Positions 2,672 through 50,855 of a stretch of 64,000 nucleotides of DNA are shown here, piece by piece. Numbering within the stretch: the stretch's first letter is position 1; the number at the start of each line of letters is the position of its first letter. The position numbers and the translations under genes are program-made. The notes under the pieces are model-generated. The model did no database searches and was not told where the DNA came from. It saw only the letters and a program-made list of their open reading frames with translations. The DNA comes from Candidatus Zixiibacteriota bacterium (GTDB lineage Bacteria > Zixibacteria > MSB-5A5 > UBA10806 > 4484-95): contig JAOZPT010000001.1 in assembly GCA_029932605.1 (NCBI GenBank), positions 5,837 through 69,836 of the forward strand, given 5' to 3'.

Positions 2672-3265
2672 TTAAACCTGTTGTATACCCTCAAGTAAAT
2701 CATGGTTAATCAGAATATACTTATCAGCAGCCTGCCTTAGCAAGAACGAACCTCCAAGGTTAGCAACCTCGACATGTTTTCCAAGCTCTTTGACCTTCTC
2801 TACTAATATAGTGAAATCCTCATCCCCGGAGACCAGTATAGCGGTATCATAGGTGTTCTTGTATGCGAAGGTCAACATATCGATGACGATGTGGGTATCC
2901 ACCCCTTTTTCAACATAGGTTGGTGCTGAAATAAATGTGCCATCGGGAAGCGTTTGCCGGACAATTCTTTTCTCGAGGCGACCAAATTTCTTTGTAAGAT
3001 ATGGCACCGAATCTAATGAATCAAAAAATGATTGTTGTTGGCGGTGCTTTTCTTCATCATCCTCTTTGTTGAGGGGGGCATTGTAATAATATGTTCGTAT
3101 AAGATGCCGACCATTAGCAAGTTTTCTGGAAAATTTCTCAAAATCAAGATTTGTGTTTCCGATAACATGTTTTAAACTATGGTATAAGTTGTTGCCATCA
3201 ATAAAAATCATTACTCTCTCATTCGAACCTGATTTTGATTGGTCATCAAACATATATTGGTTCAT
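2672..3265 (-). CDS. NYN-domain (LabA-like, PIN-related) putative ribonuclease
   Basis: 197 aa. VMIFIDGNNLYH ... GVDTHIVIDML ... AILVSGDEDF is the NYN/LabA acidic-residue pattern. Confidence 0.7.
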   Translation of the reverse strand: MNQYMFDDQSKSGSNERVMIFIDGNNLYHSLKHVIGNTNLDFEKFSRKLANGRHLIRTYYYNAPLNKEDDEEKHRQQQSFFDSLDSVPYLTKKFGRLEKRIVRQTLPDGTFISAPTYVEKGVDTHIVIDMLTFAYKNTYDTAILVSGDEDFTILVEKVKELGKHVEVANLGGSFLLRQAADKYILINHDLLEGIQQV

Positions 3266-3414
3266 TAAAAATGACTCCTTATAAAAAAGTTTACATATTT
3301 CTATAAAATCGCCACTTATTTAATTACATCAATTGCAATTTATTGTTGTATGATGGTTACTACTTTAACCGATATAGTTATAAGTTTTTTTCACCACCTC
3401 CTTTTTATCTATTA

Positions 3415-3516
3415 TTAAACCATATCCTGGACAGAAAGTTCTAAAAAACTTTCTATGATTTTTTTGTTCTCCGGATGTGAAAGATAGTTCAGGATTTTAA
3501 GATTGTTGTTAGCCAT
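3415..3516 (-). CDS. candidate small ORF (33 aa)
   Basis: MANNNLKILNYLSHPENKKIIESFLELSVQDMV. A GGAG sequence lies 6-7 nt upstream of the ATG on the minus strand. It sits in a ~950-bp AT-rich intergenic region. It is below the ORF-track length cutoff. Confidence 0.25.
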   Translation of the reverse strand: MANNNLKILNYLSHPENKKIIESFLELSVQDMV

Positions 3517-3992
3517 CAGATACTCCATTCAATCACCCTTTAACAATCCCTTATCCTGCACTTGATTATTAAAGCTAAAACCGGTCGTATTATTTATAAT
3601 ATATACTCCCACACGGTTAATCAAGAGAAAACGAAAATTGGAGTTTCCCTGAAAATTTTAAGGAGAAAACAGGTATCCTTAAAAAAAATAATTGGCAAGC
3701 CTTAAACAAACGACCTTATTAACACAACCCATCATAGCTTAAACTTGCAATGAGATGTTATTAGATTTTGTCTGTTTTATGTAAATAATTTCACACAAAC
3801 AAATTTGTTTTATGAAATGGCATGTTTTAATCTGCAACAAGTGGATTATTTTTCAAATACATAATTTGTCTCAGACAACATATTTTATTGATATTCAACG
3901 GATTGAACTTTTGCGCCACTTTGTTTCGCAAATTGGCGTTATTTTTGATTAAAAAGAATGTAAAAGAGAAAATTTGACAAGGGGAGGAAAGA

Positions 3993-4133
3993 ATGAGAAA
4001 TAGATTTATCGACCTTTTATTGGAAAAAAATCGCCAGGCCGAGAAAAAGGCCTTATCTGAATCGTTGGGATTATACGAGGAGGAAGATTATACAAAATAT
4101 GATCCCTGGCAGGATGACGATAAAGAAAAATAA
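3993..4133 (+). CDS. candidate small acidic protein (46 aa)
   Basis: MRNRFIDLLLEKNRQAEKKALSESLGLYEEEDYTKYDPWQDDDKEK. A strong RBS (GGGGAGG) lies 8 nt upstream. A rho-independent terminator follows immediately. Confidence 0.4.
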   Translation: MRNRFIDLLLEKNRQAEKKALSESLGLYEEEDYTKYDPWQDDDKEK

Positions 4134-4160
4134 TATTTCAATATACTATCAGTTTCTTCT

Positions 4161-4190
4161 CCCCGTCATCAGGCGGGGATTTTTTTATTT
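4161..4190 (+). terminator. rho-independent terminator after the 46-aa ORF
   Basis: CCCCG-TCATCAGG-CGGGG hairpin followed by ATTTTTTTATTT. Confidence 0.6.
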
Positions 4191-4222
4191 GAAAATAAAA
4201 TGCAATTTCATATTCTTGCATT

Positions 4223-4507
4223 ATGGTAAATAATAGCGATAACCAAGTCGAGTTTCCCATAGACGGCACGCTCGATCTGCATACATTCTCACCCAAAGAG
4301 GTAAAAGAGCTTGTGCCGGATTATATAGAGGCCTGTCTGGCAAAAGAGATTTATCAGCTCAGGATTATACATGGCAAAGGCACCGGCACACTCAGGCGGA
4401 TAGTCCACAGCATTCTCGAAAAACATCCGGCTGTGTTAAACTTTTGGCATGAAGAGGGAAGCGGTGGAGGCTGGGGAGCGACGGTGGTGAATTTGAGGAG
4501 GGTTTAA
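4223..4507 (+). CDS. Smr-domain protein (small MutS-related nuclease domain)
   Basis: 94 aa. [11 protein letters not shown] ... [20 protein letters not shown] matches the Smr-domain core. Confidence 0.7.
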
Positions 4508-4637
4508 TCAACCTTCCACCGGTTTGAGGTATTTTCAAGTCTCCCTTTTTTGGTTTAAAAGTAGACTTAGAATTCTTTGATTAAATCATAATATCCCTTG
4601 CCCTGAAAACTAAATATATTATATTGATGATGTAAAA

Positions 4638-4722
4638 AGATAATGGGGTGGTTGCAGACCAGAGTCAGCGGCCTGAGATTACACCCTTTGAACCTGATCT
4701 GGGTAATGCCAGCGTAGGGAAT
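4638..4722 (+). promoter_or_regulatory. TPP (thiamine pyrophosphate) riboswitch aptamer, THI element
   Basis: GGGGUG ... CUGAGA ... ACCCUUUGAACCUGAUCUGGGUAAUGCCAGCGUAGGGAA matches the conserved THI-box (Rfam RF00059-like) core. It lies in the 5' leader of the TonB-dependent receptor gene. Confidence 0.8.
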
Positions 4723-4730
4723 AATTTTAC

Positions 4731-4762
4731 GCCTCCTTCACGCTGGGAGGCTTTTTTCGTTT
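4731..4762 (+). terminator. riboswitch expression-platform terminator
   Basis: GCCTCC-TTCACGCTG-GGAGGC hairpin followed by TTTTTTCG, about 35 nt upstream of the receptor start. Confidence 0.6.
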
Positions 4763-4795
4763 CCCCGCCGGCTCCAGAGAATGCCTTAAAAGGGC

Positions 4796-7318
4796 GTGAA
4801 AGGAGCTTTTATGCTAATCACAAAAACCAAGTTTGTATTGTTAGGGTTATTACTCTTAACAGTACCATCGTTTGGCGCATCCCTTACAGGTGTTGTCACC
4901 AACGCTGAAACGGGAACGCCTGTGGCCGGTGTGCTCATTAAAATAGCCGGCACAGACTTTACTAATGTCACCGATACCGATGGTAGGTTTTTCTTTTCGG
5001 GTTTGCCTGAGGGAAAAATAACCATTGTGGCAAGTGTGATAGGGTATGAAATCACTAAAAAAAGTCTTGATTTAAAGCAGACACAGAACATTGACATACC
5101 GCTCAAACCGAAGGTTCTGAAGGGCCAGGATATAATCGTTACTGCTACCAGGGCCGAGAAGGGGAAAACACCGGCCGCTTTTTCCAACATGGGAAACGAA
5201 GATATCAAACAGCTATACTGGGCTCAGGATACACCGGTTCTTTTATCGGTTCTACCAAGTGTTTTCGCCTACTCCGATGCCGGTAATGGTGTTGGTTATT
5301 CATACTTAAAGATTCGCGGTTTCGACCAGAAACGGATCTCGGTGATGTTAAACGGTATCCCTTTAAACGATGCTGAATCGCATGAGGTTTTCTGGATAGA
5401 CCTTCCCGATTTTGCTGCTAACGTTCAGGATATTCAGGTGCAAAGAGGAGTGGGGTCATCTCTTTATGGTGCTTCATCAATGGGTGGTTCGGTAAATCTC
5501 ATCACCAACGACTTTTCAGCCATCCCGCAGATAAAATTCCAGACAGGTTACGGCAGTTACGATACCAAGAAGCTGTCAATCTCTGGCAATTCAGGTTTGA
5601 TAAATGATTCATACGTCTTCTACGGTCGGTATTCGCGGATTGAAACCGATGGTTACCGTGACAACTCCTGGACGAAAATGTATTCTTATTTCATCGGGCT
5701 GGCTCGTTATGATGAGAACATGACCTTCAAATTCAACACCTATGGCGGGCCTGAAGAATCTCACCTTGCCTATAAGGGAATCCCTTTTGAAATGCTTGAT
5801 ACTCTCAGGAAATACAACGAACTGCAGTATGAGGACGAAATCGACCATTTCAACCAGCCCCATTATGAATTTATACATGATTGGGAAATCAATGATAATC
5901 TCGAGCTGGCTAATACGATTTACTATTTCCACGGTGAGGGTTATTATAACCAGAAAAGAAATAGAAAATATATTGAGGAGTATTTCCCGGAAATCCATTC
6001 GATTATGGTTTCTGACACAACACTTGCGCCACGAGATTATTATGACCTGGATGATTTGGGATATTTTGTAGTAGATACGTCAGGATTATATATCCTCGAG
6101 AAGGTCGATCTTGTGCGTCGACGCACTGTTAAAGAATACGATTGGGGTTGGATACCAAGATTGGCACTTAAGCACAACGATGGGATGTTCACTTTTGGCG
6201 GAGAGATGCGAATTCATTCAGGTCACCATTTTGGCGAGGTGAGATGGGCAAGCGTTTATCCAGCTGGATTAGAACCCAATTCCCGTTATTACGATTATCG
6301 TGGCCAAAGCAACACTTTTACCATCTTCGCTCACGAAACTTACAACTTGACCAGTAGGCTCATTATAATGGCTAATCTCCAGTATCAAAGGCATAACTAC
6401 AAGCTTGAGAATGACAAGCGGTTTAATGTGACATTTGATCGCGATTACGACTTTATCTCACCTCGTGGAGGCATTAATTATCAGGTCAATGAAAATGTCA
6501 ACGTTTTTGTCAATTTCTCAACGACCTCGCGTCAACCTGCTTTTAAGGATATTTACGACCCGACTGATTACTGGTCAAATCCGTATTACAAAACTAACAA
6601 TTTTAACGCATCAGGCGCTGACTGGGAATATGTTGGCATGGAGTTAAAACCGGAGAAACTTTTCGACTTGGAATTTGGTGCTGATTTTAGTAAAAGGACA
6701 GATAATTTGGTCTTTAAAGGTTCTCTCAACATTTATCGTATGCAGATTAACGATGAGTTGATACCGTATGCCGGTCAGATCGATGATAATGGTTATCCTA
6801 TTTCCGGTAATGCAGAAAAAACCATTCATCAGGGTCTAGAGTTATCTTTTGATGCACTTATGCATAGCGAGTTTTCATTAACAGGCAATCTGAGTGTTAA
6901 CGATGACCATTTTGAGTCCTACAAAGAATATGGATTTGATTGGGACATCTGGGAACCGATTGAATATGACCGATCGGATAAGCGAATAGGAGGATTCCCC
7001 AAGGCGATTGCGAATTATCGGCTGGGCTATATACTGAAGAATTTGGATTTTGGTTTAAGCGGAAGATATGTTGGGGAACAATATATCGATAACGGCGAGG
7101 AATACAAGGTCGATGCTTACCACGTTTTCAATGCGGACATTTCATATGATTTGGGAAGGCTAATCGGTTTTAATTCTATGAGAATCACTTTAAGGGCAAA
7201 TAACCTTGCCGATACGAAATACGAGCAAGCTGGTTACATTGAGGAGGATGATGGATTACCTCGTTACATGGTAGGTGCCGAACGCAACTTTTTTGTTTCG
7301 CTTAGCACCGAATTTTGA
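4796..7318 (+). CDS. TonB-dependent outer-membrane receptor with N-terminal carboxypeptidase-regulatory-like domain (probable thiamine or thiamine-precursor uptake)
   Basis: 840 aa. Has a signal peptide, a CarbopepD_reg-like segment (TGVVTNAETGTPVAGVLIKI ... DGRFFF), a plug region, a long beta-barrel, and the terminal aromatic residue (STEF). The start may be the internal M at MLITKTK. The upstream TPP riboswitch supports the substrate inference. Confidence 0.85.
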   Translation: MKGAFMLITKTKFVLLGLLLLTVPSFGASLTGVVTNAETGTPVAGVLIKIAGTDFTNVTDTDGRFFFSGLPEGKITIVASVIGYEITKKSLDLKQTQNIDIPLKPKVLKGQDIIVTATRAEKGKTPAAFSNMGNEDIKQLYWAQDTPVLLSVLPSVFAYSDAGNGVGYSYLKIRGFDQKRISVMLNGIPLNDAESHEVFWIDLPDFAANVQDIQVQRGVGSSLYGASSMGGSVNLITNDFSAIPQIKFQTGYGSYDTKKLSISGNSGLINDSYVFYGRYSRIETDGYRDNSWTKMYSYFIGLARYDENMTFKFNTYGGPEESHLAYKGIPFEMLDTLRKYNELQYEDEIDHFNQPHYEFIHDWEINDNLELANTIYYFHGEGYYNQKRNRKYIEEYFPEIHSIMVSDTTLAPRDYYDLDDLGYFVVDTSGLYILEKVDLVRRRTVKEYDWGWIPRLALKHNDGMFTFGGEMRIHSGHHFGEVRWASVYPAGLEPNSRYYDYRGQSNTFTIFAHETYNLTSRLIIMANLQYQRHNYKLENDKRFNVTFDRDYDFISPRGGINYQVNENVNVFVNFSTTSRQPAFKDIYDPTDYWSNPYYKTNNFNASGADWEYVGMELKPEKLFDLEFGADFSKRTDNLVFKGSLNIYRMQINDELIPYAGQIDDNGYPISGNAEKTIHQGLELSFDALMHSEFSLTGNLSVNDDHFESYKEYGFDWDIWEPIEYDRSDKRIGGFPKAIANYRLGYILKNLDFGLSGRYVGEQYIDNGEEYKVDAYHVFNADISYDLGRLIGFNSMRITLRANNLADTKYEQAGYIEEDDGLPRYMVGAERNFFVSLSTEF

Positions 7319-7334
7319 TTAAATAAGTTCCCGG

Positions 7335-8729
7335 ATGGGTCAGAAACATTATGGTATAGAGAGCGCAATCCTGCTGATAGCGTATCTGGTATTTCTGCTG
7401 ATAGTGGGATTGCGCCTTTTTAAACGAGGGAAATCTGATGCTGATGATTATCTGGTCATGGGGCGACGGCTATCGCTTCCAGCATTTATCGCCAGCATCG
7501 TTTCCACCTGGTATGGTGGTATCCTTGGTGTTGGCGAGTATTCATACAGGCATGGTCTGTCCAACTGGTTGGTTTTTGGTTTGCCTTATTATTTATCTGC
7601 ATTTCTGTTTGCTGTATTTTTGGCTAAAAAAGCTCGGCGAAGCTATCAGCATACAATCCCCGACCAGCTTGATAAAACCTATGGAAAGACTGTCTCTGTT
7701 ATCGGGGCGGTTTTTGTATTTGTAACGACTGTGCCGGCAGCCTATGTCCTACAACTGGGTGTGCTGGCAGAAACAGCCTTCAATATACCTTTAACAATTG
7801 GTGTTGTCGGTGGAACTCTTTTTTCGACCATTTATATCTTTAGCGGGGGATTGCGTGGTGATGTCTTTACCGACAAGGTTCAATTTGCACTCATGTTCAG
7901 TTGTTTTGCTGTTATGGTTGTTGTGCTTATTTCTCGGTTTGGTGGTCTTTCTTTCCTTGAAACCAACCTTCCCGAATCTCATCTTATCTGGAGAGGTTCC
8001 AAGCCGGCATCGTATATATTCGTCTGGTATTTCATTGCCCTGGCAACTCTGGTTGAACCATCTTTCTATCAGCGTTGTTTTGCAGCCAAAAGCGAGAGGG
8101 TTGCCAGAAACGGGATTTTTGTCGCCATCGCTTTCTGGGCAATATTTGATTTTATGACCACCGCTACTGGTATGTATGCCCGGGTTTTGCTACCTGATTT
8201 AGCCAACCCGATAGCGGCCTACCCGGCTTTGGCGGTTCGTATACTACCGCGTGCTCTCCAGGCGGTGTTTTTGCTCGGTTTATTTGCTACTGTGATGTCC
8301 ACCGTTGATTCATACACATTCATTGCCGGTGCAACCGTAGGCAAAGATATCATCTGGCGACTTAAAGGAGGAGACATCACAAAAAACAGCCGATGGGGAT
8401 TGGTGGTTTCAGGAATACTGGCAGTAGTTATAGCTTTGTTTTTCCGCTCGGTTATCGATATCTGGTATTTATTTGGCACACTGGGCACCTGTGCCCTTTT
8501 GATCCCACTTGCCTCGTCGTTTTCGGAAAAATGGCGTATGACCCCAAAAATGGCGGCTATGTCCATGATATTTTCACCTCTGGTAGCCCTTATATGGATT
8601 GTACCAAATCTATTTCTCGGTATAAAATATTTCTGGGGCATCGACCCCATATATCCGGGACTTTTGACGTCAGTTATAATATACATTTTCAGTTGCAATA
8701 TAAAGAATCATTTCCACAAGCCCTTTTAG
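7335..8729 (+). CDS. sodium:solute symporter family (SSF) transporter, ThiV/PanF-like
   Basis: 464 aa, polytopic. Has the N-terminal SSF signature DDYLVMGRRLSLPAFIASIVSTWYGG. It lies 16 nt downstream of the receptor, so is probably co-transcribed under the riboswitch. Confidence 0.75.
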   Translation: MGQKHYGIESAILLIAYLVFLLIVGLRLFKRGKSDADDYLVMGRRLSLPAFIASIVSTWYGGILGVGEYSYRHGLSNWLVFGLPYYLSAFLFAVFLAKKARRSYQHTIPDQLDKTYGKTVSVIGAVFVFVTTVPAAYVLQLGVLAETAFNIPLTIGVVGGTLFSTIYIFSGGLRGDVFTDKVQFALMFSCFAVMVVVLISRFGGLSFLETNLPESHLIWRGSKPASYIFVWYFIALATLVEPSFYQRCFAAKSERVARNGIFVAIAFWAIFDFMTTATGMYARVLLPDLANPIAAYPALAVRILPRALQAVFLLGLFATVMSTVDSYTFIAGATVGKDIIWRLKGGDITKNSRWGLVVSGILAVVIALFFRSVIDIWYLFGTLGTCALLIPLASSFSEKWRMTPKMAAMSMIFSPLVALIWIVPNLFLGIKYFWGIDPIYPGLLTSVIIYIFSCNIKNHFHKPF

Positions 8730-8813: not shown

Positions 8814-10103
8814 ATGTTAAATAGGCACTTCTTAACGACAATATTATCAAAGAGAACATTTAACAGATTTAAAGATGAAAAAATAAAAAGGCTTATTGAA
8901 AACTTCTTCTCCCTATCCGTTCTTCAGGTGGTAAACTATATTTTACCGCTTGTTACACTGCCATATTTGGTGAGGGTATTAGGTGCTGAGAAGTTTGGTC
9001 TGGTCATGTTTGCCAACGCCTTTATTCAATATTTTATTATGCTCACGGACTACGGGTTTATTCTGTCGGCCACCAGGGAGATATCTGTTCACAGGGAGGA
9101 TATAAAGAAAGTTTCGGAGATTTTCACCTCGGTTATGATAATAAAAATGGTGTTGTTTCTTGTAAGTTTGATTATCTTGTTTGGTATCGTATTCAGTTTC
9201 GATAAGTTCAGAAATGATTGGCAGTTATATTTTTTAACATCGGGCATGATTTTGGGTAATATTTTATTTCCGATATGGTTCTTTCAGGGTATGGAAAGGA
9301 TGAAATATATAACCATTTTAAATATTACGGCCAAAACGATATTCACAGTCTTAATATTTGTTTTTATAAGAAATCAAGGTGATTACATATATGTACCGGT
9401 TTTCAATTCTTTAGGTTTTATAACGGCTGGCATTTTATCTTTTTGGATAGTAATAAAATATTTTAAGATCCGTTTATATCTACCCAAAATTTCTCGAATA
9501 TACAGTTACTTTAAAGATAGCACTCAATATTTTCTTTCGAGGGTTTCAGTATCAGTATATACAAGTAGTAATACTTTCGTTGTCGGATTATTTTTGGGTA
9601 ATACCGCAGCCGGATATTATTCTGCAGCCGAGAAGCTATTTTTGGCCTTAAGGATGGCATATACTCCTTTGAATACAACTTTATATCCATACATGTGCAA
9701 TACTAGAAACCTGAGATTGTATAAAAAGATATTCCTGCTGGCGTTTATCGTGAATTTAGCGCTGTGTTCTTCAATATTTCTATCCAGCGGGTTTATCATC
9801 GGCCTGCTTTATGGAGAAGGTTTTCAGGTAAGCGTAAAATTACTGCAGATGTTTTCAATACTGGGTCTTATAATAGTTCCTTCCATCTTGCTTGGATATC
9901 CCCTGCTGGCGGCTTTAGGCCATCCTAAATATGCAAACATGAGCGTCATAGTCGCTTCTGTATTTCATTTAATTATGTTGATGTTGATAATTCCCATAAT
10001 CAAAATTTATTTCGTAGTCATAATAGCTATGATAACAGAAACCGTAGTGCTTCTGATCAGAGTCTATGGTATAAGAAAACATAAACTATGGAGAACTAGA
10101 TGA
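8814..10103 (+). CDS. polysaccharide/teichoic-acid-type flippase (Wzx-like, MOP superfamily)
   Basis: 429 aa with about 12 predicted TM segments. The Polysacc_synt-like N-terminus (LSVLQVVNYILPLVTLPYLVRVLGAEKFGLV) is present. Confidence 0.7.
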   Translation: MLNRHFLTTILSKRTFNRFKDEKIKRLIENFFSLSVLQVVNYILPLVTLPYLVRVLGAEKFGLVMFANAFIQYFIMLTDYGFILSATREISVHREDIKKVSEIFTSVMIIKMVLFLVSLIILFGIVFSFDKFRNDWQLYFLTSGMILGNILFPIWFFQGMERMKYITILNITAKTIFTVLIFVFIRNQGDYIYVPVFNSLGFITAGILSFWIVIKYFKIRLYLPKISRIYSYFKDSTQYFLSRVSVSVYTSSNTFVVGLFLGNTAAGYYSAAEKLFLALRMAYTPLNTTLYPYMCNTRNLRLYKKIFLLAFIVNLALCSSIFLSSGFIIGLLYGEGFQVSVKLLQMFSILGLIIVPSILLGYPLLAALGHPKYANMSVIVASVFHLIMLMLIIPIIKIYFVVIIAMITETVVLLIRVYGIRKHKLWRTR

Positions 10104-10783
10104 AAGCAGTTATCCTTGCCGCGGGTATGGGCTTACGAATTGGGAAACCTGTTCCCAAAGCTCTTTTAGAATTACCATCAGGGGAAAGCATTTTGAGCAG
10201 ACAGGTTAGAATTTTTAAATCTGAGGGGATAGAGGATATAAGCGTCGTTGTGGGGTATAAAAAAGAACTGATCATGTCCCACATTCCTGATGTGCGGTTT
10301 ATATTCAATCCCGAATACAGAAATACGAATACCGCTAAAAGTCTTTTGTGCGCGTTGGAGGGAGTAGAGGATGATATTATATGGGCAAACGGGGACCTCG
10401 TTTATGATGAAAACATTTTAACATTGTTAAAATCGCAAAGGTTTAATACAATTGTCGTTAACAATGCTAAATGTGGTGAAGAGGAGGTTAAATATCTTGT
10501 GGATAAAAGTGGTAATGTTATCTCTATTTCCAAGGAAATTGAAAATGGCCAGGGTGAGGCGTTGGGAATAAATTTGATTAAGAAGAAGTCGATTAAAGTA
10601 TTTATTGAGGCGTTAAATGAATGTAAGGACACTGATTTTTTCGAAAAGGCTATACAGATTTTGATCGATAGGGGGGTAATCTTTAAACATCTCGATGTGT
10701 CTGATTACAGATGTATTGAGATTGATTTTGAAGAGGATTTGAACAGGGCTTTGATTTTATTTGGTCAGAATGGTAGAAATTGA
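10100..10783 (+). CDS. LicC-like sugar/alcohol-phosphate cytidylyltransferase (NTP_transferase fold)
   Basis: 227 aa. MKAVILAAGMGLRIG ... PKALLEL at the N-terminus. The whole protein lines up with CTP:phosphocholine cytidylyltransferase LicC-like enzymes. Its start overlaps the flippase stop (ATGA), suggesting translational coupling. Confidence 0.7.
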   Translation: MKAVILAAGMGLRIGKPVPKALLELPSGESILSRQVRIFKSEGIEDISVVVGYKKELIMSHIPDVRFIFNPEYRNTNTAKSLLCALEGVEDDIIWANGDLVYDENILTLLKSQRFNTIVVNNAKCGEEEVKYLVDKSGNVISISKEIENGQGEALGINLIKKKSIKVFIEALNECKDTDFFEKAIQILIDRGVIFKHLDVSDYRCIEIDFEEDLNRALILFGQNGRN

Positions 10784-10886
10784 AATCGCTATCAACCGAA
10801 AATTTATATTTGATTTCAAAAAGACATATTTGTTCGGGAGAAAACCAAATTCCCTATGAAAACGATGGTAAACAGCATACTGAAAA

Positions 10887-12107
10887 TTGATAATGAAAGT
10901 TTTTAGAAGAACGATCACGCTTATAAAATGGCTTTTGGGGAGCATTATATATCTTATTTCATATTTAGTACCCAAGGATAAAAATCTCTGGGTTTTCGGA
11001 GCCTGGTTTGGCGATAAATATTCTGATAACTCGAAATATTTTTTTGAGTATATGAATAGAGCTCATCCCGAAATAAAAGCGGTCTGGCTGACCAACAACG
11101 ATAAGGCTTTAAGATTGGTCAAGAACAAGGGTTTTGAGGTTTTAAGAACATACAGCTTAAAGGGGACCTGGTGCTCGATGCGGGCGACAGTAGGAATACT
11201 TTCAACATGGGTAAACGATATAAATAGATATACGATTTCAAAAACGCGTTTAATACAGTTGTGGCATGGTTCGCCGTTAAAAAAAATAGGCTATGATGAT
11301 AAAATTTCTATTGAGAAGGAATTGCTGATTAAAAGGGTTGTTACAAGGTTGTTGCCGTTCTTGAAAAAGGGTTTAGAGATAAATATGATAATGGCTGCTT
11401 CTTCTAAAGTGCAAGGGATACTATCCGGAGCGTTCAGGGTTTCCAAAAGCAATGTAAAAATAACAGGATATCCTAGAAACGATGTTTTCTTTATGGAAAA
11501 CACCGAGAATTTTCCTATAAAACAGAAACTTCTAAAACTCAAAAATTGTTTTAAAATCGGTATTTATCTTCCCACACATCGCCAGAAAGGAAATATCGAT
11601 ATCGCTTCAATGTTTCTTGATACCATTGATGATGTAAACTCAAGATTAAAAAAAATTAATGTGATTCTTCTGGTAAAATATCATTATTATCATCTGAGAT
11701 CTCTTAAGGACAGGTTGGCAAGTTATTCGAATATCATTTTTTTAAGCGATGATGATATTAATCAGGATATCTATCCTGTCCTGCCGCTGGTTGATTTTTT
11801 GATTACTGATTATTCAAGTGTTTATTTTGATTATTTACTGACGGATAAACCTATAATATTTGCTCCATTTGATATGAGGCAGTATGTGAAGGATGATAGA
11901 GAGCTTTATTTTGACTATGATGAAGTGACACCTGGTGCCAAAGCCACAAATTGGGATGAGCTTATATACTTTATAGACAGAGCAATCAAATACCCCGATG
12001 AATATAAACCGCAAAGAGATAAAATCAGGAGGATTTTCAATCAATATGACGACGGAAATAGTAGCCAGAGAGTCTTCGATGAGGTTATAAAATACACTCA
12101 CTCTTGA
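10887..12107 (+). CDS. CDP-glycerol/CDP-alcohol glycerophosphotransferase family protein (TagB/TagF-like)
   Basis: 406 aa. The C-terminal motif ITDYSSVYFDYLLTDKPIIFAPFDMRQYVKDDRELYFDYDEVTPG is typical of the Glyphos_transf (TagF) family. Confidence 0.75.
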   Translation: MIMKVFRRTITLIKWLLGSIIYLISYLVPKDKNLWVFGAWFGDKYSDNSKYFFEYMNRAHPEIKAVWLTNNDKALRLVKNKGFEVLRTYSLKGTWCSMRATVGILSTWVNDINRYTISKTRLIQLWHGSPLKKIGYDDKISIEKELLIKRVVTRLLPFLKKGLEINMIMAASSKVQGILSGAFRVSKSNVKITGYPRNDVFFMENTENFPIKQKLLKLKNCFKIGIYLPTHRQKGNIDIASMFLDTIDDVNSRLKKINVILLVKYHYYHLRSLKDRLASYSNIIFLSDDDINQDIYPVLPLVDFLITDYSSVYFDYLLTDKPIIFAPFDMRQYVKDDRELYFDYDEVTPGAKATNWDELIYFIDRAIKYPDEYKPQRDKIRRIFNQYDDGNSSQRVFDEVIKYTHS

Positions 12108-12910: not shown

Positions 12911-14227
12911 TTATTTTAAATAAGTCACTTTTGCCGTGGATGATTGGTTTTTCTGCAAAGCGAAATTACGGCCAGAAATTTTTATAAAATATATTCCAGA
13001 TACCAAATTTTCAGGATTCCATACAATAGAGTAACTTCCGTTCTCGAAAACACCTTTTTCAAGGTTAGTAACAAGTTTCCCATTGATGTTATAAATATCC
13101 AGTGAAATTGATGTTACCCTAGCAATCTCGAATCTGATTGTAGCTGCAGAATTAAATGGATTGGGATAACAACCGGTTATCTTGAAACTTACCGGCAGTA
13201 AATTATTGTTGTTATCGATGCTGTTTATATAACTAGGTAGAAGAACAAACAATGAATCGCCATCGGCTAATAACAGGTAGTCGCCATAAACAGCACTTCC
13301 GCGTGCTGTATTAGGACTATCGAATATTGCCAGCAATGAAGGATTCAAAGGGTTATTGACAGAAACAGCGATAAGGCCTCCTGTGTCATCGGCAAGATAG
13401 GCAATTGTATCGGATATAGTAACCCTGTTTAAATAACCCGGGGTGTCGAATGTCGTCAGGCTATCCGGGTGTAAAGGGTCGTTTAAATCAAATATGACCA
13501 TCCCCTCTTGCCCGCAGGCCAAATACAGGTTTTCTGCGGTCATGGTGATATCCGAACCTCCCGTATCGAGTCTGAATGAATCTAAGAGAACCGGATTTAT
13601 CGTATCGGCAAGAGAATATGTTAAAAGCCCGTAATCCTGGTCAGCGATATAAATTGTAGTGCCATTTACCGCAACCGATGCTGTATATCCAAATGGCGGG
13701 ATATATCCCACCTGTTGCGGATTGGAGTTATCTGTGACATCAAGTATGACCAGACCATTGAGAAAGTCAGCTACATATAACAGATTTTCGTATAAAAACA
13801 GATCTATAGTGGTGCCAAGGGTATTGAAAGCTCCAATTGAATCAGGGGAAGCTGGTTGAGACAGGTCAACGATTGTCACTCCTCTGTTCCAGTGGGCAAG
13901 GTAGGCGATGTTATCTGAAACGATGATATCATTTACGAAAGCATCGTCAAAGTATGAAGAGACGTAAATGGGCACTTCAGGTATAACGATATTGAATATC
14001 GAAAGGCCGGCATCACCATCGGCAACCAAGGCGACATTGTCATATATCGCCACAGATTGGGCCTGCCCGGGAGTGTTTGTTACACCGATTACATCGAATT
14101 GCCAGTCATACTGGCAGAATGTTACTGTTGATAATAATAATATCAGTATAGTTGCAGTTGTCGGTAAATTCCGCATAAAATTACCCATATTAAAAACTTG
14201 CAAATAATATACCTGTTGTAAATACAT
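12911..14227 (-). CDS. LVIVD-repeat beta-propeller protein with T9SS C-terminal sorting domain
   Basis: 438 aa. Signal peptide, then repeated L-x-I/V-x-D-like blades (LVILDVTDNSNPQQ, VTIVDLSQPASP, MVIFDLNDPLHP, LIAVSVNNPLNP). C-terminal YPNPFNSAATIRF ... GIYFIKI matches the Por secretion-tail pattern. Confidence 0.7.
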   Translation of the reverse strand: MYLQQVYYLQVFNMGNFMRNLPTTATILILLLSTVTFCQYDWQFDVIGVTNTPGQAQSVAIYDNVALVADGDAGLSIFNIVIPEVPIYVSSYFDDAFVNDIIVSDNIAYLAHWNRGVTIVDLSQPASPDSIGAFNTLGTTIDLFLYENLLYVADFLNGLVILDVTDNSNPQQVGYIPPFGYTASVAVNGTTIYIADQDYGLLTYSLADTINPVLLDSFRLDTGGSDITMTAENLYLACGQEGMVIFDLNDPLHPDSLTTFDTPGYLNRVTISDTIAYLADDTGGLIAVSVNNPLNPSLLAIFDSPNTARGSAVYGDYLLLADGDSLFVLLPSYINSIDNNNNLLPVSFKITGCYPNPFNSAATIRFEIARVTSISLDIYNINGKLVTNLEKGVFENGSYSIVWNPENLVSGIYFIKISGRNFALQKNQSSTAKVTYLK

Positions 14228-17994: not shown

Positions 17995-18070
17995 TGGTAG
18001 CGCTACGGGGAATCGAACCCCGGTTTGATGGCTGAGAACCACCCGTCCTAGGCCACTAGACGATAGCGCC
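17995..18070 (-). tRNA. tRNA-Glu (anticodon CUC), CCA encoded
   Basis: The reverse complement gives a 7-bp acceptor stem (GGCGCUA/UAGCGCU) with an encoded CCA end. The anticodon loop is UUCUCAG with U33 and A37, and the anticodon CUC reads GAG. A D-arm is present, and there is a standard T-arm CGGGG-TTCGATT-CCCCG. Confidence 0.85.
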
Positions 18071-30997: not shown

Positions 30998-31963
30998 TTA
31001 TAGTTCTTCTTTATCGTTGTTGGATAATGGATTTTTATCAAAATTTATTTCACGTGTTTTTCCGAAATTAATGGTGAATGAAAAGAAATGCGTCTGGCCT
31101 AAGTCCTGGCCGGGGTTGAATGCATAATCGATACGTCCCCACATGAACTTTAGCCCGGCACCAAAATTAACCATGTTAGATTGGTTATCGATACCGAGGT
31201 CACCAAGACCTGTTCTTAAGTTTAAGGCATTGCCCAGATTGTATTCCATTCCAGCGGAAAAGCTTGTTTCACCTGTAAATGCTACTTTTGTTCCCACCAT
31301 CATCGTTATAGGAATATTTATGGGGCTGAAAGAACTACCAACGGAGACCGAGGAGGGAAGCTTGTAGCTCTGCTCATCATATTTAACTTTGGGGCCAAGA
31401 TTATTAACAACGAAACCGAACGTAAATGTATTAATCAAATATTGAATTCCCATATCCAGAGCATAACCAGAGGCTTTAATATCTGCCAACTTTTCCTCTA
31501 TGTATTTCCCGCTTAGGCCAAGGTATAAAGCTCCTGACAATCTCCGGCTATAAGAGGCGATTGCCGTTAAACTATAAGGTCTGATACTTCCATATTGCTG
31601 GTCATACATATTGTAAGTATCGATCTGTCCCATGTGAAGATAAGAAGCTGATACTCCGATTGTTGAGTTGGTTTTCATGGGAATAGCTACAGCTATAAAT
31701 TCATATGATATATCCTGAAGCCATGAATTGTGCATAAAATTTAAGCCTGGTTGCTCAATTGAAGATAAACCAGCTGGATTGAAGTATGTTGAGGCTATGT
31801 CATTACTTATCGCCCAGCTTGCTCCACCCAAAGCAGCATGTCGAGCAGATACACTTATGTTTAGGAAATCTGCGGAGGTAATACCTCCAGCGGTAGCTGT
31901 ATTTATTAGGGTAATGCTCAGTATTATCGTAATAATAGAAATAAATTTCATTTGTTTTATCAT
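30998..31963 (-). CDS. PorV/PorQ-family outer-membrane beta-barrel protein (T9SS-associated)
   Basis: Start chosen at MIKQMKF (GGAGGG 7 nt upstream), giving a signal peptide. The ORF track starts at 32041. ARHAALGGASWAISNDIASTYFNPAGL is the hallmark N-terminal motif of PorV/PorQ-like proteins. It ends in an aromatic-rich beta-barrel C-terminus. Confidence 0.6.
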   Translation of the reverse strand: MIKQMKFISIITIILSITLINTATAGGITSADFLNISVSARHAALGGASWAISNDIASTYFNPAGLSSIEQPGLNFMHNSWLQDISYEFIAVAIPMKTNSTIGVSASYLHMGQIDTYNMYDQQYGSIRPYSLTAIASYSRRLSGALYLGLSGKYIEEKLADIKASGYALDMGIQYLINTFTFGFVVNNLGPKVKYDEQSYKLPSSVSVGSSFSPINIPITMMVGTKVAFTGETSFSAGMEYNLGNALNLRTGLGDLGIDNQSNMVNFGAGLKFMWGRIDYAFNPGQDLGQTHFFSFTINFGKTREINFDKNPLSNNDKEEL

Positions 31964-32371
31964 TAGAACACCCTCCTCTGATGATGGAATATGCAAATGA
32001 TATGCCATCAAGCAGACCCCCCTGGAGGTTGTTTGTAACATATTCTGTTACAACAAGATAAATGTTGCACCAAGATAACAGTTAGTCGGGGTGTTTGGGA
32101 TGTATTTGGTTTAATATTTTGGCAATAATTAAGAACTAATGGCATTTTTAAAGACACAATCCTTTTGAACCTTATAACTCATTGATACTTATGGTGTTCA
32201 AGCCCTTTATCAAAACGATTTTTACTTGCTTAATTGTTGAACAAATCCATCTTTTGAACATATTTTTTTACTATCATGGTTATTGGTTAAAGTCAATAGT
32301 TAATTTATAAAACTCCCCAATTTTACCGGAAATACAATTATAGAAATGTAAGCATGGCGGTGTGTAATCAT

Positions 32372-49155: not shown

Positions 49156-49815
49156 TTGATTACTTTAAATGACGTAAAACAAAACGAAAAAGTGGCTTTG
49201 TTGATATCCAAAGCTGATGAATTTCTGGGTATCATCGGTTACACGGAGCATGGTGAGAGGCACAGTTCGCTGGCATCCAATATTGCCTATAACATTATGA
49301 TTCGTCTTGGCAAGGGGGAGAAACGTGCCCAGCTTGCCGCTATTGCTGCCTATTTACATGATATCGGCAACGTTATCAACCGTGACTACCATGCCCAGAC
49401 GGCCTCGATTATAGCTATGAATATCCTTGATGAGATAGGTATGGAGTATAGTGATATTATCGAGGTCATCGCTGCTATTGGCAATCATGATGAAAAGGAT
49501 GGTAGCCCCATTTCGGATATTTGTGCGGCGGTTATTTTGGCTGATAAGTCCGACGTTCATCAGTCACGTGTGCGCAATCCCGAATTCATCAAGACGGATA
49601 TTCATGATCGGGTAAACTGGGCTGCCAAATCGTCATTTTTAAGAGTCGATGAGGTTAAGAAAAAGGTGATCTTGGAGATAAAGATCGATACTTCCGTATC
49701 CTCGGTAATGGAGTATTTTGAGATATTTTTATCACGAATGGTGGTTTGTCGTAGGGCGGCTGAATTTTTAGGATTAAAGTTTGAACTTGAAATCAACGGG
49801 TATAAACTTCTTTGA
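49156..49815 (+). CDS. HD-domain phosphohydrolase
   Basis: 219 aa. HGERHS ... YLHDIG ... metal-binding H/HD motifs. Confidence 0.65.
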   Translation: MITLNDVKQNEKVALLISKADEFLGIIGYTEHGERHSSLASNIAYNIMIRLGKGEKRAQLAAIAAYLHDIGNVINRDYHAQTASIIAMNILDEIGMEYSDIIEVIAAIGNHDEKDGSPISDICAAVILADKSDVHQSRVRNPEFIKTDIHDRVNWAAKSSFLRVDEVKKKVILEIKIDTSVSSVMEYFEIFLSRMVVCRRAAEFLGLKFELEINGYKLL

Positions 49816-50855
49816 AAAATCCTGCTTCTGAGTACGCTAAATCAGGCGTTGATATAAAAGCCTCTGATAAAGCCAAGTTGCTGATGAAAAAGCTGGTGGA
49901 GGGCACCTTTAATGGTAATGTTATCGGTGGCCATGGGGGTTTCGGCGGTTTGTATTCAATTAAGGAGCTTACCGGTGTTGACAAGATATTGGTAGGTTCA
50001 ACAGATTCTGTTGGTACCAAACTGAAACTTGCGTTTATGACCGGCCGACACGACACAGTAGGGCAGGACCTGGTTAACCATTTAGTCAATGATATCTTGT
50101 GCTGTGGGGCTAAGCCGATGTTCTTTTTCGACTACTTAGGGCTTGGGAGTATTTCGCCTGATACGGTTGTTGATATCGTAAAAGGCTTGGTTAAGGCTTG
50201 CGAGGAAAACAACACGGTATTGCTTGGGGGTGAAACCGCCGAGTTGCCCGGTTTTTACAACGAGGGTGAATATGACTTGGCTGGTTTTATCATTGGCTGG
50301 GTGGATAAAGATAGAATTATTGATGGCAAGTTAATTAAACCCGGGGATAAAATAATCGGTTTGGCCTCGTCTGGTCTTCATACAAACGGTTATTCATTGG
50401 CCAGACGGGCTTTTTTCGATATCGCTGGAATGAAACATGGCGATAAAATCGAGGAAACAGGCACTGAGGTTACCACAGAGCTTATGAAGGTCCATTATTC
50501 ATATTTGGATGTCGTTACGCCTTTGCTTGATTTAAGATTAATCAAGGGAATATCCCATATAACCGGTGGTGGTTTTGAGGGAAATATCAGAAGAATTATA
50601 CCTGATGGTATCTCAGCAGTTATCAAAACAGAAACCTGGCCGGTGCCTGGGATATTTAAGGCTATCCAGAGAATAGCTTCAGTTTCAGATTCTGAGATGT
50701 ACAGGGTGTTTAATATGGGTATAGGAATGGTTTTAGTTTGTAATACTCAGGACAGCGGTAAGGTAATTTCCTTTATAAAAGATGCAAATATTGACGTTTA
50801 TGAGATAGGATTTTGTGAGAAAGGGAGGCGAAGAGTGGTGGTTGAATTTGGTTAA
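49812..50855 (+). CDS. purM: phosphoribosylformylglycinamidine cyclo-ligase (AIR synthetase)
   Basis: 347 aa. AYAKSGVDI, GGFGGL and GSTDSVGTKLKLAF match PurM blocks. Overlaps the HD gene by 4 nt. Confidence 0.95.
   Translation: MKNPASEYAKSGVDIKASDKAKLLMKKLVEGTFNGNVIGGHGGFGGLYSIKELTGVDKILVGSTDSVGTKLKLAFMTGRHDTVGQDLVNHLVNDILCCGAKPMFFFDYLGLGSISPDTVVDIVKGLVKACEENNTVLLGGETAELPGFYNEGEYDLAGFIIGWVDKDRIIDGKLIKPGDKIIGLASSGLHTNGYSLARRAFFDIAGMKHGDKIEETGTEVTTELMKVHYSYLDVVTPLLDLRLIKGISHITGGGFEGNIRRIIPDGISAVIKTETWPVPGIFKAIQRIASVSDSEMYRVFNMGIGMVLVCNTQDSGKVISFIKDANIDVYEIGFCEKGRRRVVVEFG

Follow-up and report, generated by a model that had tools for sequence, protein, structure and literature searches.

A TPP riboswitch-led receptor-symporter pair in Candidatus Zixiibacteriota: a probable thiamine-uptake operon with an SSF symporter distinct from SAR11-type ThiV

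What do two otherwise generic transporters carry when their genes stand behind a thiamine pyrophosphate (TPP) riboswitch, and how would the riboswitch control them? The question is raised by a locus in a 64,000-nucleotide stretch of a Candidatus Zixiibacteriota bacterium (contig JAOZPT010000001.1, positions 5,837 to 69,836), which we analyzed as a whole and refer to as the window. At this locus a TPP riboswitch, a TonB-dependent receptor gene and a gene for a sodium:solute symporter (SSF) follow one another on the forward strand. We consider it probable that they form a bicistronic operon for thiamine uptake, governed by a TPP-sensing OFF riboswitch, in which the receptor and symporter genes would be co-transcribed. 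The features concerned, in window coordinates, are the following.

4598..4625, + strand: candidate sigma-70-like promoter (TTGCCC, 16-nt spacer, TATATT; 9/12 in a consensus scan; the sigma-70 consensus may not be that of Zixibacteria)
4634..4738, + strand: aptamer of the TPP riboswitch (THI element), in which CUGAGA occupies 4673..4678 and the THI-box 4692..4720 (RF00059, 65.1 bits)
4709..4746, + strand: predicted anti-terminator, in which CCAGCGUAGGG (4709..4719) pairs with CCUU-C-ACGCUGG (4735..4746), from constrained folding
4731..4757, + strand: intrinsic terminator, with a 7-bp G+C-rich stem GCCUCCU/GGGAGGC (hairpin 4731..4751), a 7-nt loop and a U6 tract, from a terminator scan
4811..7318, + strand: TonB-dependent outer-membrane receptor, predicted thiamine receptor, 835 aa (Pfam PF13715, PF07715, PF00593)
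7335..8729, + strand: SSF (SLC5-type) sodium:solute symporter, predicted inner-membrane Na+:thiamine symporter, 464 aa (PF00474, 87.3 bits)

An Rfam cmscan of the whole window returned a single RF00059 (TPP riboswitch) match, the aptamer listed above, which exceeds the gathering score of 54.3 bits (E 1.6e-10), spans the full model (positions 1-105) and departs from it only in the deletion of the optional hairpin after CUGAGA. Rfam matched one other element in the window, a tRNA gene (17998..18070, - strand, 54.3 bits). An earlier note on this DNA had read a canonical THI-box with CUGAGA here, and the strings that it quoted can be read in the window sequence, CTGAGA from 4673 and ACCTGATCTGGGTAATGCCAGCGTAGGGA at 4692..4720. 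For comparison, one genome per species was scanned with an alignment of symporter homologues, which gave at least 591 confirmed matches overall; 80 loci (L numbers below) were retrieved, from Zixibacteria, Ignavibacteriales, Eisenbacteria, KSB1, Fermentibacteria, Calditrichaeota and others. When the window leader was aligned with 40 homologous leaders, the CUGAGA and ACCUGA...GCGUAGGGA columns were found to be (near-)invariant across the 41 sequences, and compensatory changes were seen in aptamer helices P2, P3 and P5. Double changes that keep the pair occur in 6 of the 15 predicted aptamer pairs, and one pair in P5 is C-G in 27 sequences, U-A in 14 and broken in none. The THI element is not a chance match, given the Rfam E-value and its recurrence in all the orthologous leaders that were examined, and we regard 4634..4738 as confirmed by sequence comparison as a genuine TPP riboswitch with a terminator platform. 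The candidate promoter at 4598..4625 would, as a weak prediction, put the transcription start just 5' of the aptamer.

The U6-tract terminator starts 11 nt past the THI-box. Its hairpin (in DNA, GCCTCCT-TCACGCT-GGGAGGC, then TTTTTT) was found in the consensus scan and again in the minimum free energy (MFE) fold, which bears out the terminator platform that the earlier note had placed in this leader, and folded alone it has a free energy of -11.5 kcal/mol. The segment CCAGCGUAGGG consists of the 3' sides of helices P5 and P4 of the aptamer, and its pairing with 4735..4746 takes away part of both terminator arms, so that the two structures are mutually exclusive. Folding of 4634..4760 gave -38.6 kcal/mol for the unconstrained aptamer-like fold with the terminator and -36.7 kcal/mol with the anti-terminator forced. 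Two competing folds of nearly equal energy that make use of one and the same aptamer strand are how transcriptional OFF switches are usually built. In these folding models, 4709..4746 would serve as the anti-terminator and termination would depend on the ligand. The closest relatives (L003, L004 and L005) have their terminator 7-10 nt past the aptamer.

The transcriptional model leaves one element of the leader unexplained, a hairpin of -17 kcal/mol between the terminator and the receptor start (4770..4807), in which GGCUCC (4770..4775) pairs with the Shine-Dalgarno sequence GGAGCU (4802..4807) and buries it. Such a hairpin would suit a riboswitch that works mainly on translation or mRNA stability, for which the terminator-like hairpin would not be decisive. 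So would the counts among relatives, where a terminator-like hairpin was found at only 27 of 51 related aptamers, about half of the leaders lacking one; the platform type differs among related leaders. Little transcriptional response has also been described for Bacteroides transport riboswitches (PMC5613172; bioRxiv 10.1101/867226): transcripts of OMthi and pnuT in B. thetaiotaomicron respond little to thiamine (PMC5613172), and riboswitch-bearing transport leaders therefore do not always act at transcription. Yet the window leader combines a canonical G+C-rich stem and U6 tract with an overlapping anti-terminator made of aptamer strands, the three closest relatives have the same terminator layout, and no pairing was found between the Shine-Dalgarno hairpin and the aptamer. 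Control mainly at translation or stability is, in our judgment, quite unlikely, and the hairpin at 4770..4807 may add translational control to a transcriptional switch or may be constitutive.

The gene behind this leader had been described as coding for an 840-aa TonB-dependent receptor. The open reading frame (ORF) is real and was listed from GTG 4796 to 7318 with that length, but ATG 4811 is the likelier start because it lies 5 nt past an AAAGGAG Shine-Dalgarno sequence and close homologues have 835 aa, so that the product is probably 835 aa long. Behind a signal-peptide-like N-terminus, Pfam models find a CarboxypepD_reg-like domain (CarbopepD_reg_2), a plug and a TonB_dep_Rec_b-barrel, with PF07715 (plug, 55.9 bits) and PF00593 (barrel, 116.9 bits) both over their cut-offs. 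The peptide QDIIVTATR (residues 106-114), just ahead of the plug, resembles the TonB-box consensus as judged by eye only. Searches for a substrate by homology returned little: the receptor scores too low for any of the named siderophore, haem or B12 models of NCBIfam at their curated cut-offs, and a search of the PDB gave only weak, uninformative matches to generic TonB receptors (9rvq, FhuA).

The leaders of related receptors are more informative. Homologues at 38-100% identity all have a TPP riboswitch in the leader. Four of them, at 38-48% identity, were picked without regard to the symporter, and all four leaders match RF00059. In one of these four loci, from an Ignavibacteria metagenome-assembled genome (MAG), the receptor is followed by a GIY-YIG gene, a thiamine diphosphokinase (TPK) gene and the symporter; in a second, TPK-symporter is followed by riboswitch-thiL-receptor; in the other two, the receptor stands alone. 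The receptor clade is consistently THI-regulated, and this rules out a siderophore or glycan receptor, the kind of protein with which, according to the earlier note, the receptor should not cluster. The comparison with Bacteroidetes OMthi that the note had drawn is apt (PMC5613172, PMC2211319). Predictions of outer-membrane receptors under TPP riboswitch control (omr/omr1, OMthi) date back to 2002 (PMC2211319), and genetic evidence gives BT2390 (OMthi) a part in the acquisition of thiamine by B. thetaiotaomicron (PMC5613172). Like the window receptor, BT2390 is TonB-dependent, has a TPP riboswitch in its leader and is paired with an inner-membrane transporter; conservation of the riboswitch among orthologues, which marks the OMthi type, extends to the window receptor (47/47 receptor-symporter pairs and 4/4 receptor homologues). 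BT2390 has ~740 aa as judged from gene length, whereas the window receptor has 835 aa and a CarboxypepD_reg-like N-terminal domain. The inner-membrane partners differ as well. In B. thetaiotaomicron the partners of OMthi are PnuT-Tnr3 (BT2396-97), a permease and a thiamine pyrophosphokinase (PMC5613172), and PnuT, of the PnuC family, works by facilitated diffusion with trapping by phosphorylation, whereas the partner in the window is an SSF sodium symporter.

That symporter begins 16 nt past the receptor stop codon, at the distance given in the earlier note, and a consensus scan found no terminator-like site between the two genes. An identical copy has been deposited as DRP26_00950 (Candidatus Zixiibacteriota MAG). 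The PF00474 score compares with a gathering score of 22.8 bits, and the match covers profile positions 3-401 of 406. How firmly the symporter is tied to the receptor and the riboswitch was judged from the 80 retrieved loci and the window together, which fall into four groups.

47/81 loci: complete receptor homologue adjoining the symporter, THI-box upstream on the same strand
12/81 loci: receptor present, contig ending before the leader
10/81 loci: contig cut too near the symporter to judge
12/81 loci: neither receptor nor riboswitch adjoining the symporter

The leader carries a THI-box in all 47 cases in which a complete receptor gene lies beside the symporter, and Rfam confirmed 14 of 14 regular-expression THI hits in ten sampled loci. 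Two of the checks that the earlier note had proposed, the RF00059 search and a look for THI elements ahead of orthologous pairs, are therefore positive. It is very unlikely, in our view, that the symporter is a mere neighbor that carries an unrelated solute (pantothenate, proline or other) and that only the receptor belongs to the thiamine regulon. In 59 of the 81 loci, and in several candidate phyla, the symporter adjoins a receptor homologue (median gap 6 nt), and the adjacency survives inversion of the gene order: in three high-GC Eisenbacteria-type loci (L059, L066, L075) the order is riboswitch-symporter-receptor, which speaks for a functional rather than an accidental linkage and for selection that keeps the genes together. 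A neighbor without a role in thiamine transport would also sit poorly with the TPK and symporter genes of L053, L083 and L087, which have a few bases in common where they meet. What speaks for it is that the best NCBIfam and profile matches of the symporter are PanF and PutP, and that 12 homologues lack both riboswitch and adjoining receptor and stand in unrelated contexts. All NCBIfam PanF and PutP scores, however, are far under the curated equivalog cut-offs (82.7 bits against a cut-off of 328 for the PanF equivalog). In 11 of the 12 riboswitch-less loci, an Rfam scan at the gathering score found no TPP element, the neighbors being unrelated genes; in the twelfth (L029), a riboswitch and a receptor start lie 5.4 kb off on the other strand.

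Three further observations were made among the retrieved loci. The receptor ORF of L075, as called from the first start codon after the preceding stop, has 713 aa and is without the CarboxypepD_reg-like N-terminal domain. In a clade labeled Zixibacteria/Ignavibacteriales, tandem complete TPP aptamers stand ahead of the receptor (L061, 3149..3538; L065, 2869..3493; L073, 3163..3420; L080, 3192..3436), all above the Rfam gathering score, with a terminator-like hairpin after the first copy and none after the second. The symporters of L013, L014 and L060, labeled Limnocylindrales, Dormiibacterota and Omnitrophota, cluster tightly with those of Eisenbacteria, and the contigs have Eisenbacteria-like G+C; their taxonomic labels may be binning errors.

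If receptor and symporter act together on one compound, is it thiamine itself or a precursor? The earlier note had left both open. At least 11 relatives have a TPK gene, identified by PF04263 with PF04265 and by TIGR01378 above its cut-off, within the operon or next to it. In L011, L062, L053 and L083 the gene stands between receptor and symporter, in L087/L088 directly before the symporter, and in six Eisenbacteria-type loci it is divergent and adjoins the riboswitch. Thiamine diphosphokinase acts on intact thiamine. Because this recurrent partner uses intact thiamine, intact thiamine is favored over hydroxymethylpyrimidine (HMP) or thiazole, and the cargo of receptor and symporter is, from gene context, most likely intact thiamine and not a pyrimidine or thiazole precursor, so that of the two substrates in the earlier note we retain the first.

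The alternative keeps the same riboswitch and operon and makes the cargo a thiamine precursor or breakdown product (HMP, AmMP/FAMP, thiazole), as has been proposed for SAR11 ThiV. This TPP-riboswitch-regulated SSF protein is linked to HMP uptake (PMC11452348), and it has in common with the Zixibacteria clade a Tyr in transmembrane helix (TM) 2 and an Asp after the Ser-Thr of TM8. In L087 (1..6487, bacterium BMS3Bbin03), moreover, the riboswitch controls thiL (TIGR01379, 272 bits), a 41-aa ORF and the receptor, which co-regulates the receptor with a step that de novo synthesis and salvage share. A precursor remains unlikely to us: the recurrent partner is a kinase whose substrate is intact thiamine, no thiD, thiE, thiM or tenA was found among the annotated operon neighbors in relatives, and the symporter clade is at least as close to PanF and PutP as to ThiV and is without the acidic TM3 and Phe-His TM6 signatures described below. 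An AIRS-domain protein in the window (49812..50855) was considered as a ThiL candidate and rejected, as it is PurM, and Pfam annotation of the other large ORFs in the window gave nothing related to thiamine.

The earlier note had assigned the symporter to the ThiV type, a name that has been used in more than one sense. Our references were SAR11 ThiV (SAR11_0811, Q4FMG0), the only ThiV sequence compared, and a set of SSF proteins, both from the supplement of PMC11452348. The window symporter is 26% identical to SAR11 ThiV (E 9e-13) and 24% identical to E. coli PanF (E 4e-21). A profile of the symporter clade scores E. coli PanF at 108.5 bits, E. coli PutP at 68.2, SAR11 ThiV at 57.3 and SiaT at 35.5, and does not detect the eukaryotic SSSP and SSSQ. 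SAR11 ThiV, for its part, finds its best matches in SSSP (152 bits) and SSSQ (111 bits), against ~60 bits for this symporter clade. The ThiV/SSSP signature consists of a Tyr in TM2, an acidic residue in TM3, and a Phe followed by a His or polar residue in TM6 (PMC11452348). One of these three is present in the symporter clade, the TM2 Tyr (Y85); TM3 has an invariant Tyr137 where ThiV/SSSP has Glu/Asp, and TM6 has Val-Glu/Asp-Pro where ThiV/SSSP has Phe-His. A Ser-Thr-x-Asp motif in TM8 is common to both. With profile scores below those of PanF and PutP and two of the three signature residues absent, the symporter does not class as an orthologue of SAR11-type ThiV. The loose original meaning of ThiV, as PMC2211319 summarizes Rodionov 2002, is a THI-regulated PanF homologue. 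Because PanF is the best characterized match and the gene lies in a THI-led operon, the symporter appears to fit ThiV in this loose sense only, the original ThiV being known here by its description. SAR11 ThiV and the window symporter thus share the SSF superfamily, an upstream TPP riboswitch, the TM2 Tyr and the TM8 motif, but their associations differ: HMP and no partner receptor in the outer membrane for SAR11 ThiV, TPK and a receptor for the window clade.

The residues of the symporter allow some statements on its ligands. S322 and T323 in TM8, at the Na2 site, do not vary within the clade and line up with the Ser-Thr of PutP, PanF and ThiV. In PutP this pair is presumably S340/T341, the residues known from PutP mutagenesis. 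Coupling of the symporter to Na+ would be consistent with this alignment. Invariant aromatic and acidic residues at or near the substrate-binding positions of SiaT would, suggestively, suit an aromatic cation such as thiamine. The closest solved structure found in a PDB search is SLC5A7 (PDB 9rws, E 2.4e-15), a choline transporter, which by analogy would likewise be suggestive of an aromatic cation as cargo. The closest characterized relative in sequence is E. coli PanF, the Na+/pantothenate symporter; PanF and SLC5A7, the high-affinity choline transporter, are both SSF carriers that couple the transport of small vitamin-like or cationic solutes to Na+. Their substrates are pantothenate and choline, whereas the genomic context of the window symporter is specific to thiamine. 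We lean slightly toward the view that the symporter represents an independent, unnamed clade of Na+:thiamine symporters, distinct from ThiV-SSSP, PnuT, ThiT and ThiBPQ, and the standard partner of an OMthi-like receptor in Zixibacteria, Ignavibacteria, Eisenbacteria, KSB1, Calditrichaeota and related uncultured lineages.

The proposed thiamine-uptake operon would then work as follows. At high TPP, the ligand would bind the aptamer (4634..4738) and hold CCAGCGUAGGG in helices P4/P5, so that the hairpin at 4731..4751 with its U-tract could form and halt transcription ahead of the genes. At low TPP, the CCAGCGUAGGG segment would pair with 4735..4746 as an anti-terminator, and RNA polymerase would read through. 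The TonB-energized outer-membrane receptor would capture scarce thiamine and move it to the periplasm, from which the sodium-coupled symporter would carry it across the inner membrane. Thiamine diphosphokinase, assumed to be encoded elsewhere in the genome, would convert cytoplasmic thiamine to TPP and close the feedback loop.

Several points weigh against the operon as proposed here. To the leader evidence given above (the buried Shine-Dalgarno sequence, the aptamers without a terminator-like hairpin and the weak response of the Bacteroides transcripts) we add that in L087 the TPK-symporter genes lie upstream of the riboswitch, so that the symporter is not behind a visible riboswitch, and that, given the 12 homologues without riboswitch or adjoining receptor, the clade is not always THI-regulated. 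The 64-kb window holds no TPK or other thi gene, so the salvage step is an assumption in this genome, and experimental evidence exists for none of the members of the symporter clade.

The nearest precedent for the whole locus is Cabys_3975-3977 of Caldithrix abyssi, a member of a related phylum, where a TPP riboswitch, a receptor described as highly similar to BT2390, a symporter and a pyrophosphokinase were read as thiamine uptake in a predicted auxotroph (Kublanov et al. 2017, PMC5317091). Among the relatives, L011, L062 and L083 are made up of these same parts. The C. abyssi locus includes a pyrophosphokinase gene, whereas the window locus is without one, and homology between the two would follow from their common architecture, both loci being known from sequence alone. 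The arrangement of riboswitch, receptor and SSF symporter is thus already described in C. abyssi (PMC5317091), and the window is a further instance of it with a predicted function.

An 84-nt gap free of terminator-like sites separates the symporter gene from downstream genes for a Polysacc_synt flippase, a MobA-like nucleotidyltransferase and a CDP-glycerol glycerophosphotransferase (8814..12107), which point to teichoic-acid-type chemistry. We rejected these flippase and glycerophosphotransferase genes as part of the unit, as they stand beside the symporter in no relative. Upstream of the leader, NYN-domain and Smr-domain genes (2672..4507) are syntenic with 1592..3146 of L005, the closest long relative, and the whole neighborhood, not the operon alone, is therefore conserved in this Zixibacteria lineage. 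Farther away, an LVIVD-repeat protein with a Por_Secre_tail sorting domain (12911..14227, - strand) and a PorV-like protein (30998..32041, - strand) are, from their domains, predicted cargo and components of a type IX secretion system.

No new principle emerges from this locus, as the module has been predicted before (C. abyssi in 2017; OMthi in 2002 and 2017). Its analysis assigns thiamine as the probable substrate of two otherwise generic transporters from a phylum that metagenomes alone have revealed, and places them in a riboswitch-receptor-SSF module, often with TPK, that is widespread across FCB-type candidate phyla. The label 'ThiV' currently spans at least two unrelated SSF lineages. 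This is relevant to environmental studies of vitamin B1 cycling that count thiV, omr1 and pnuT as markers, in which the symporter clade is apparently untracked. If the clade is indeed one of thiamine symporters, current vitamin B1 marker-gene surveys would overlook the thiamine uptake capacity of these lineages.

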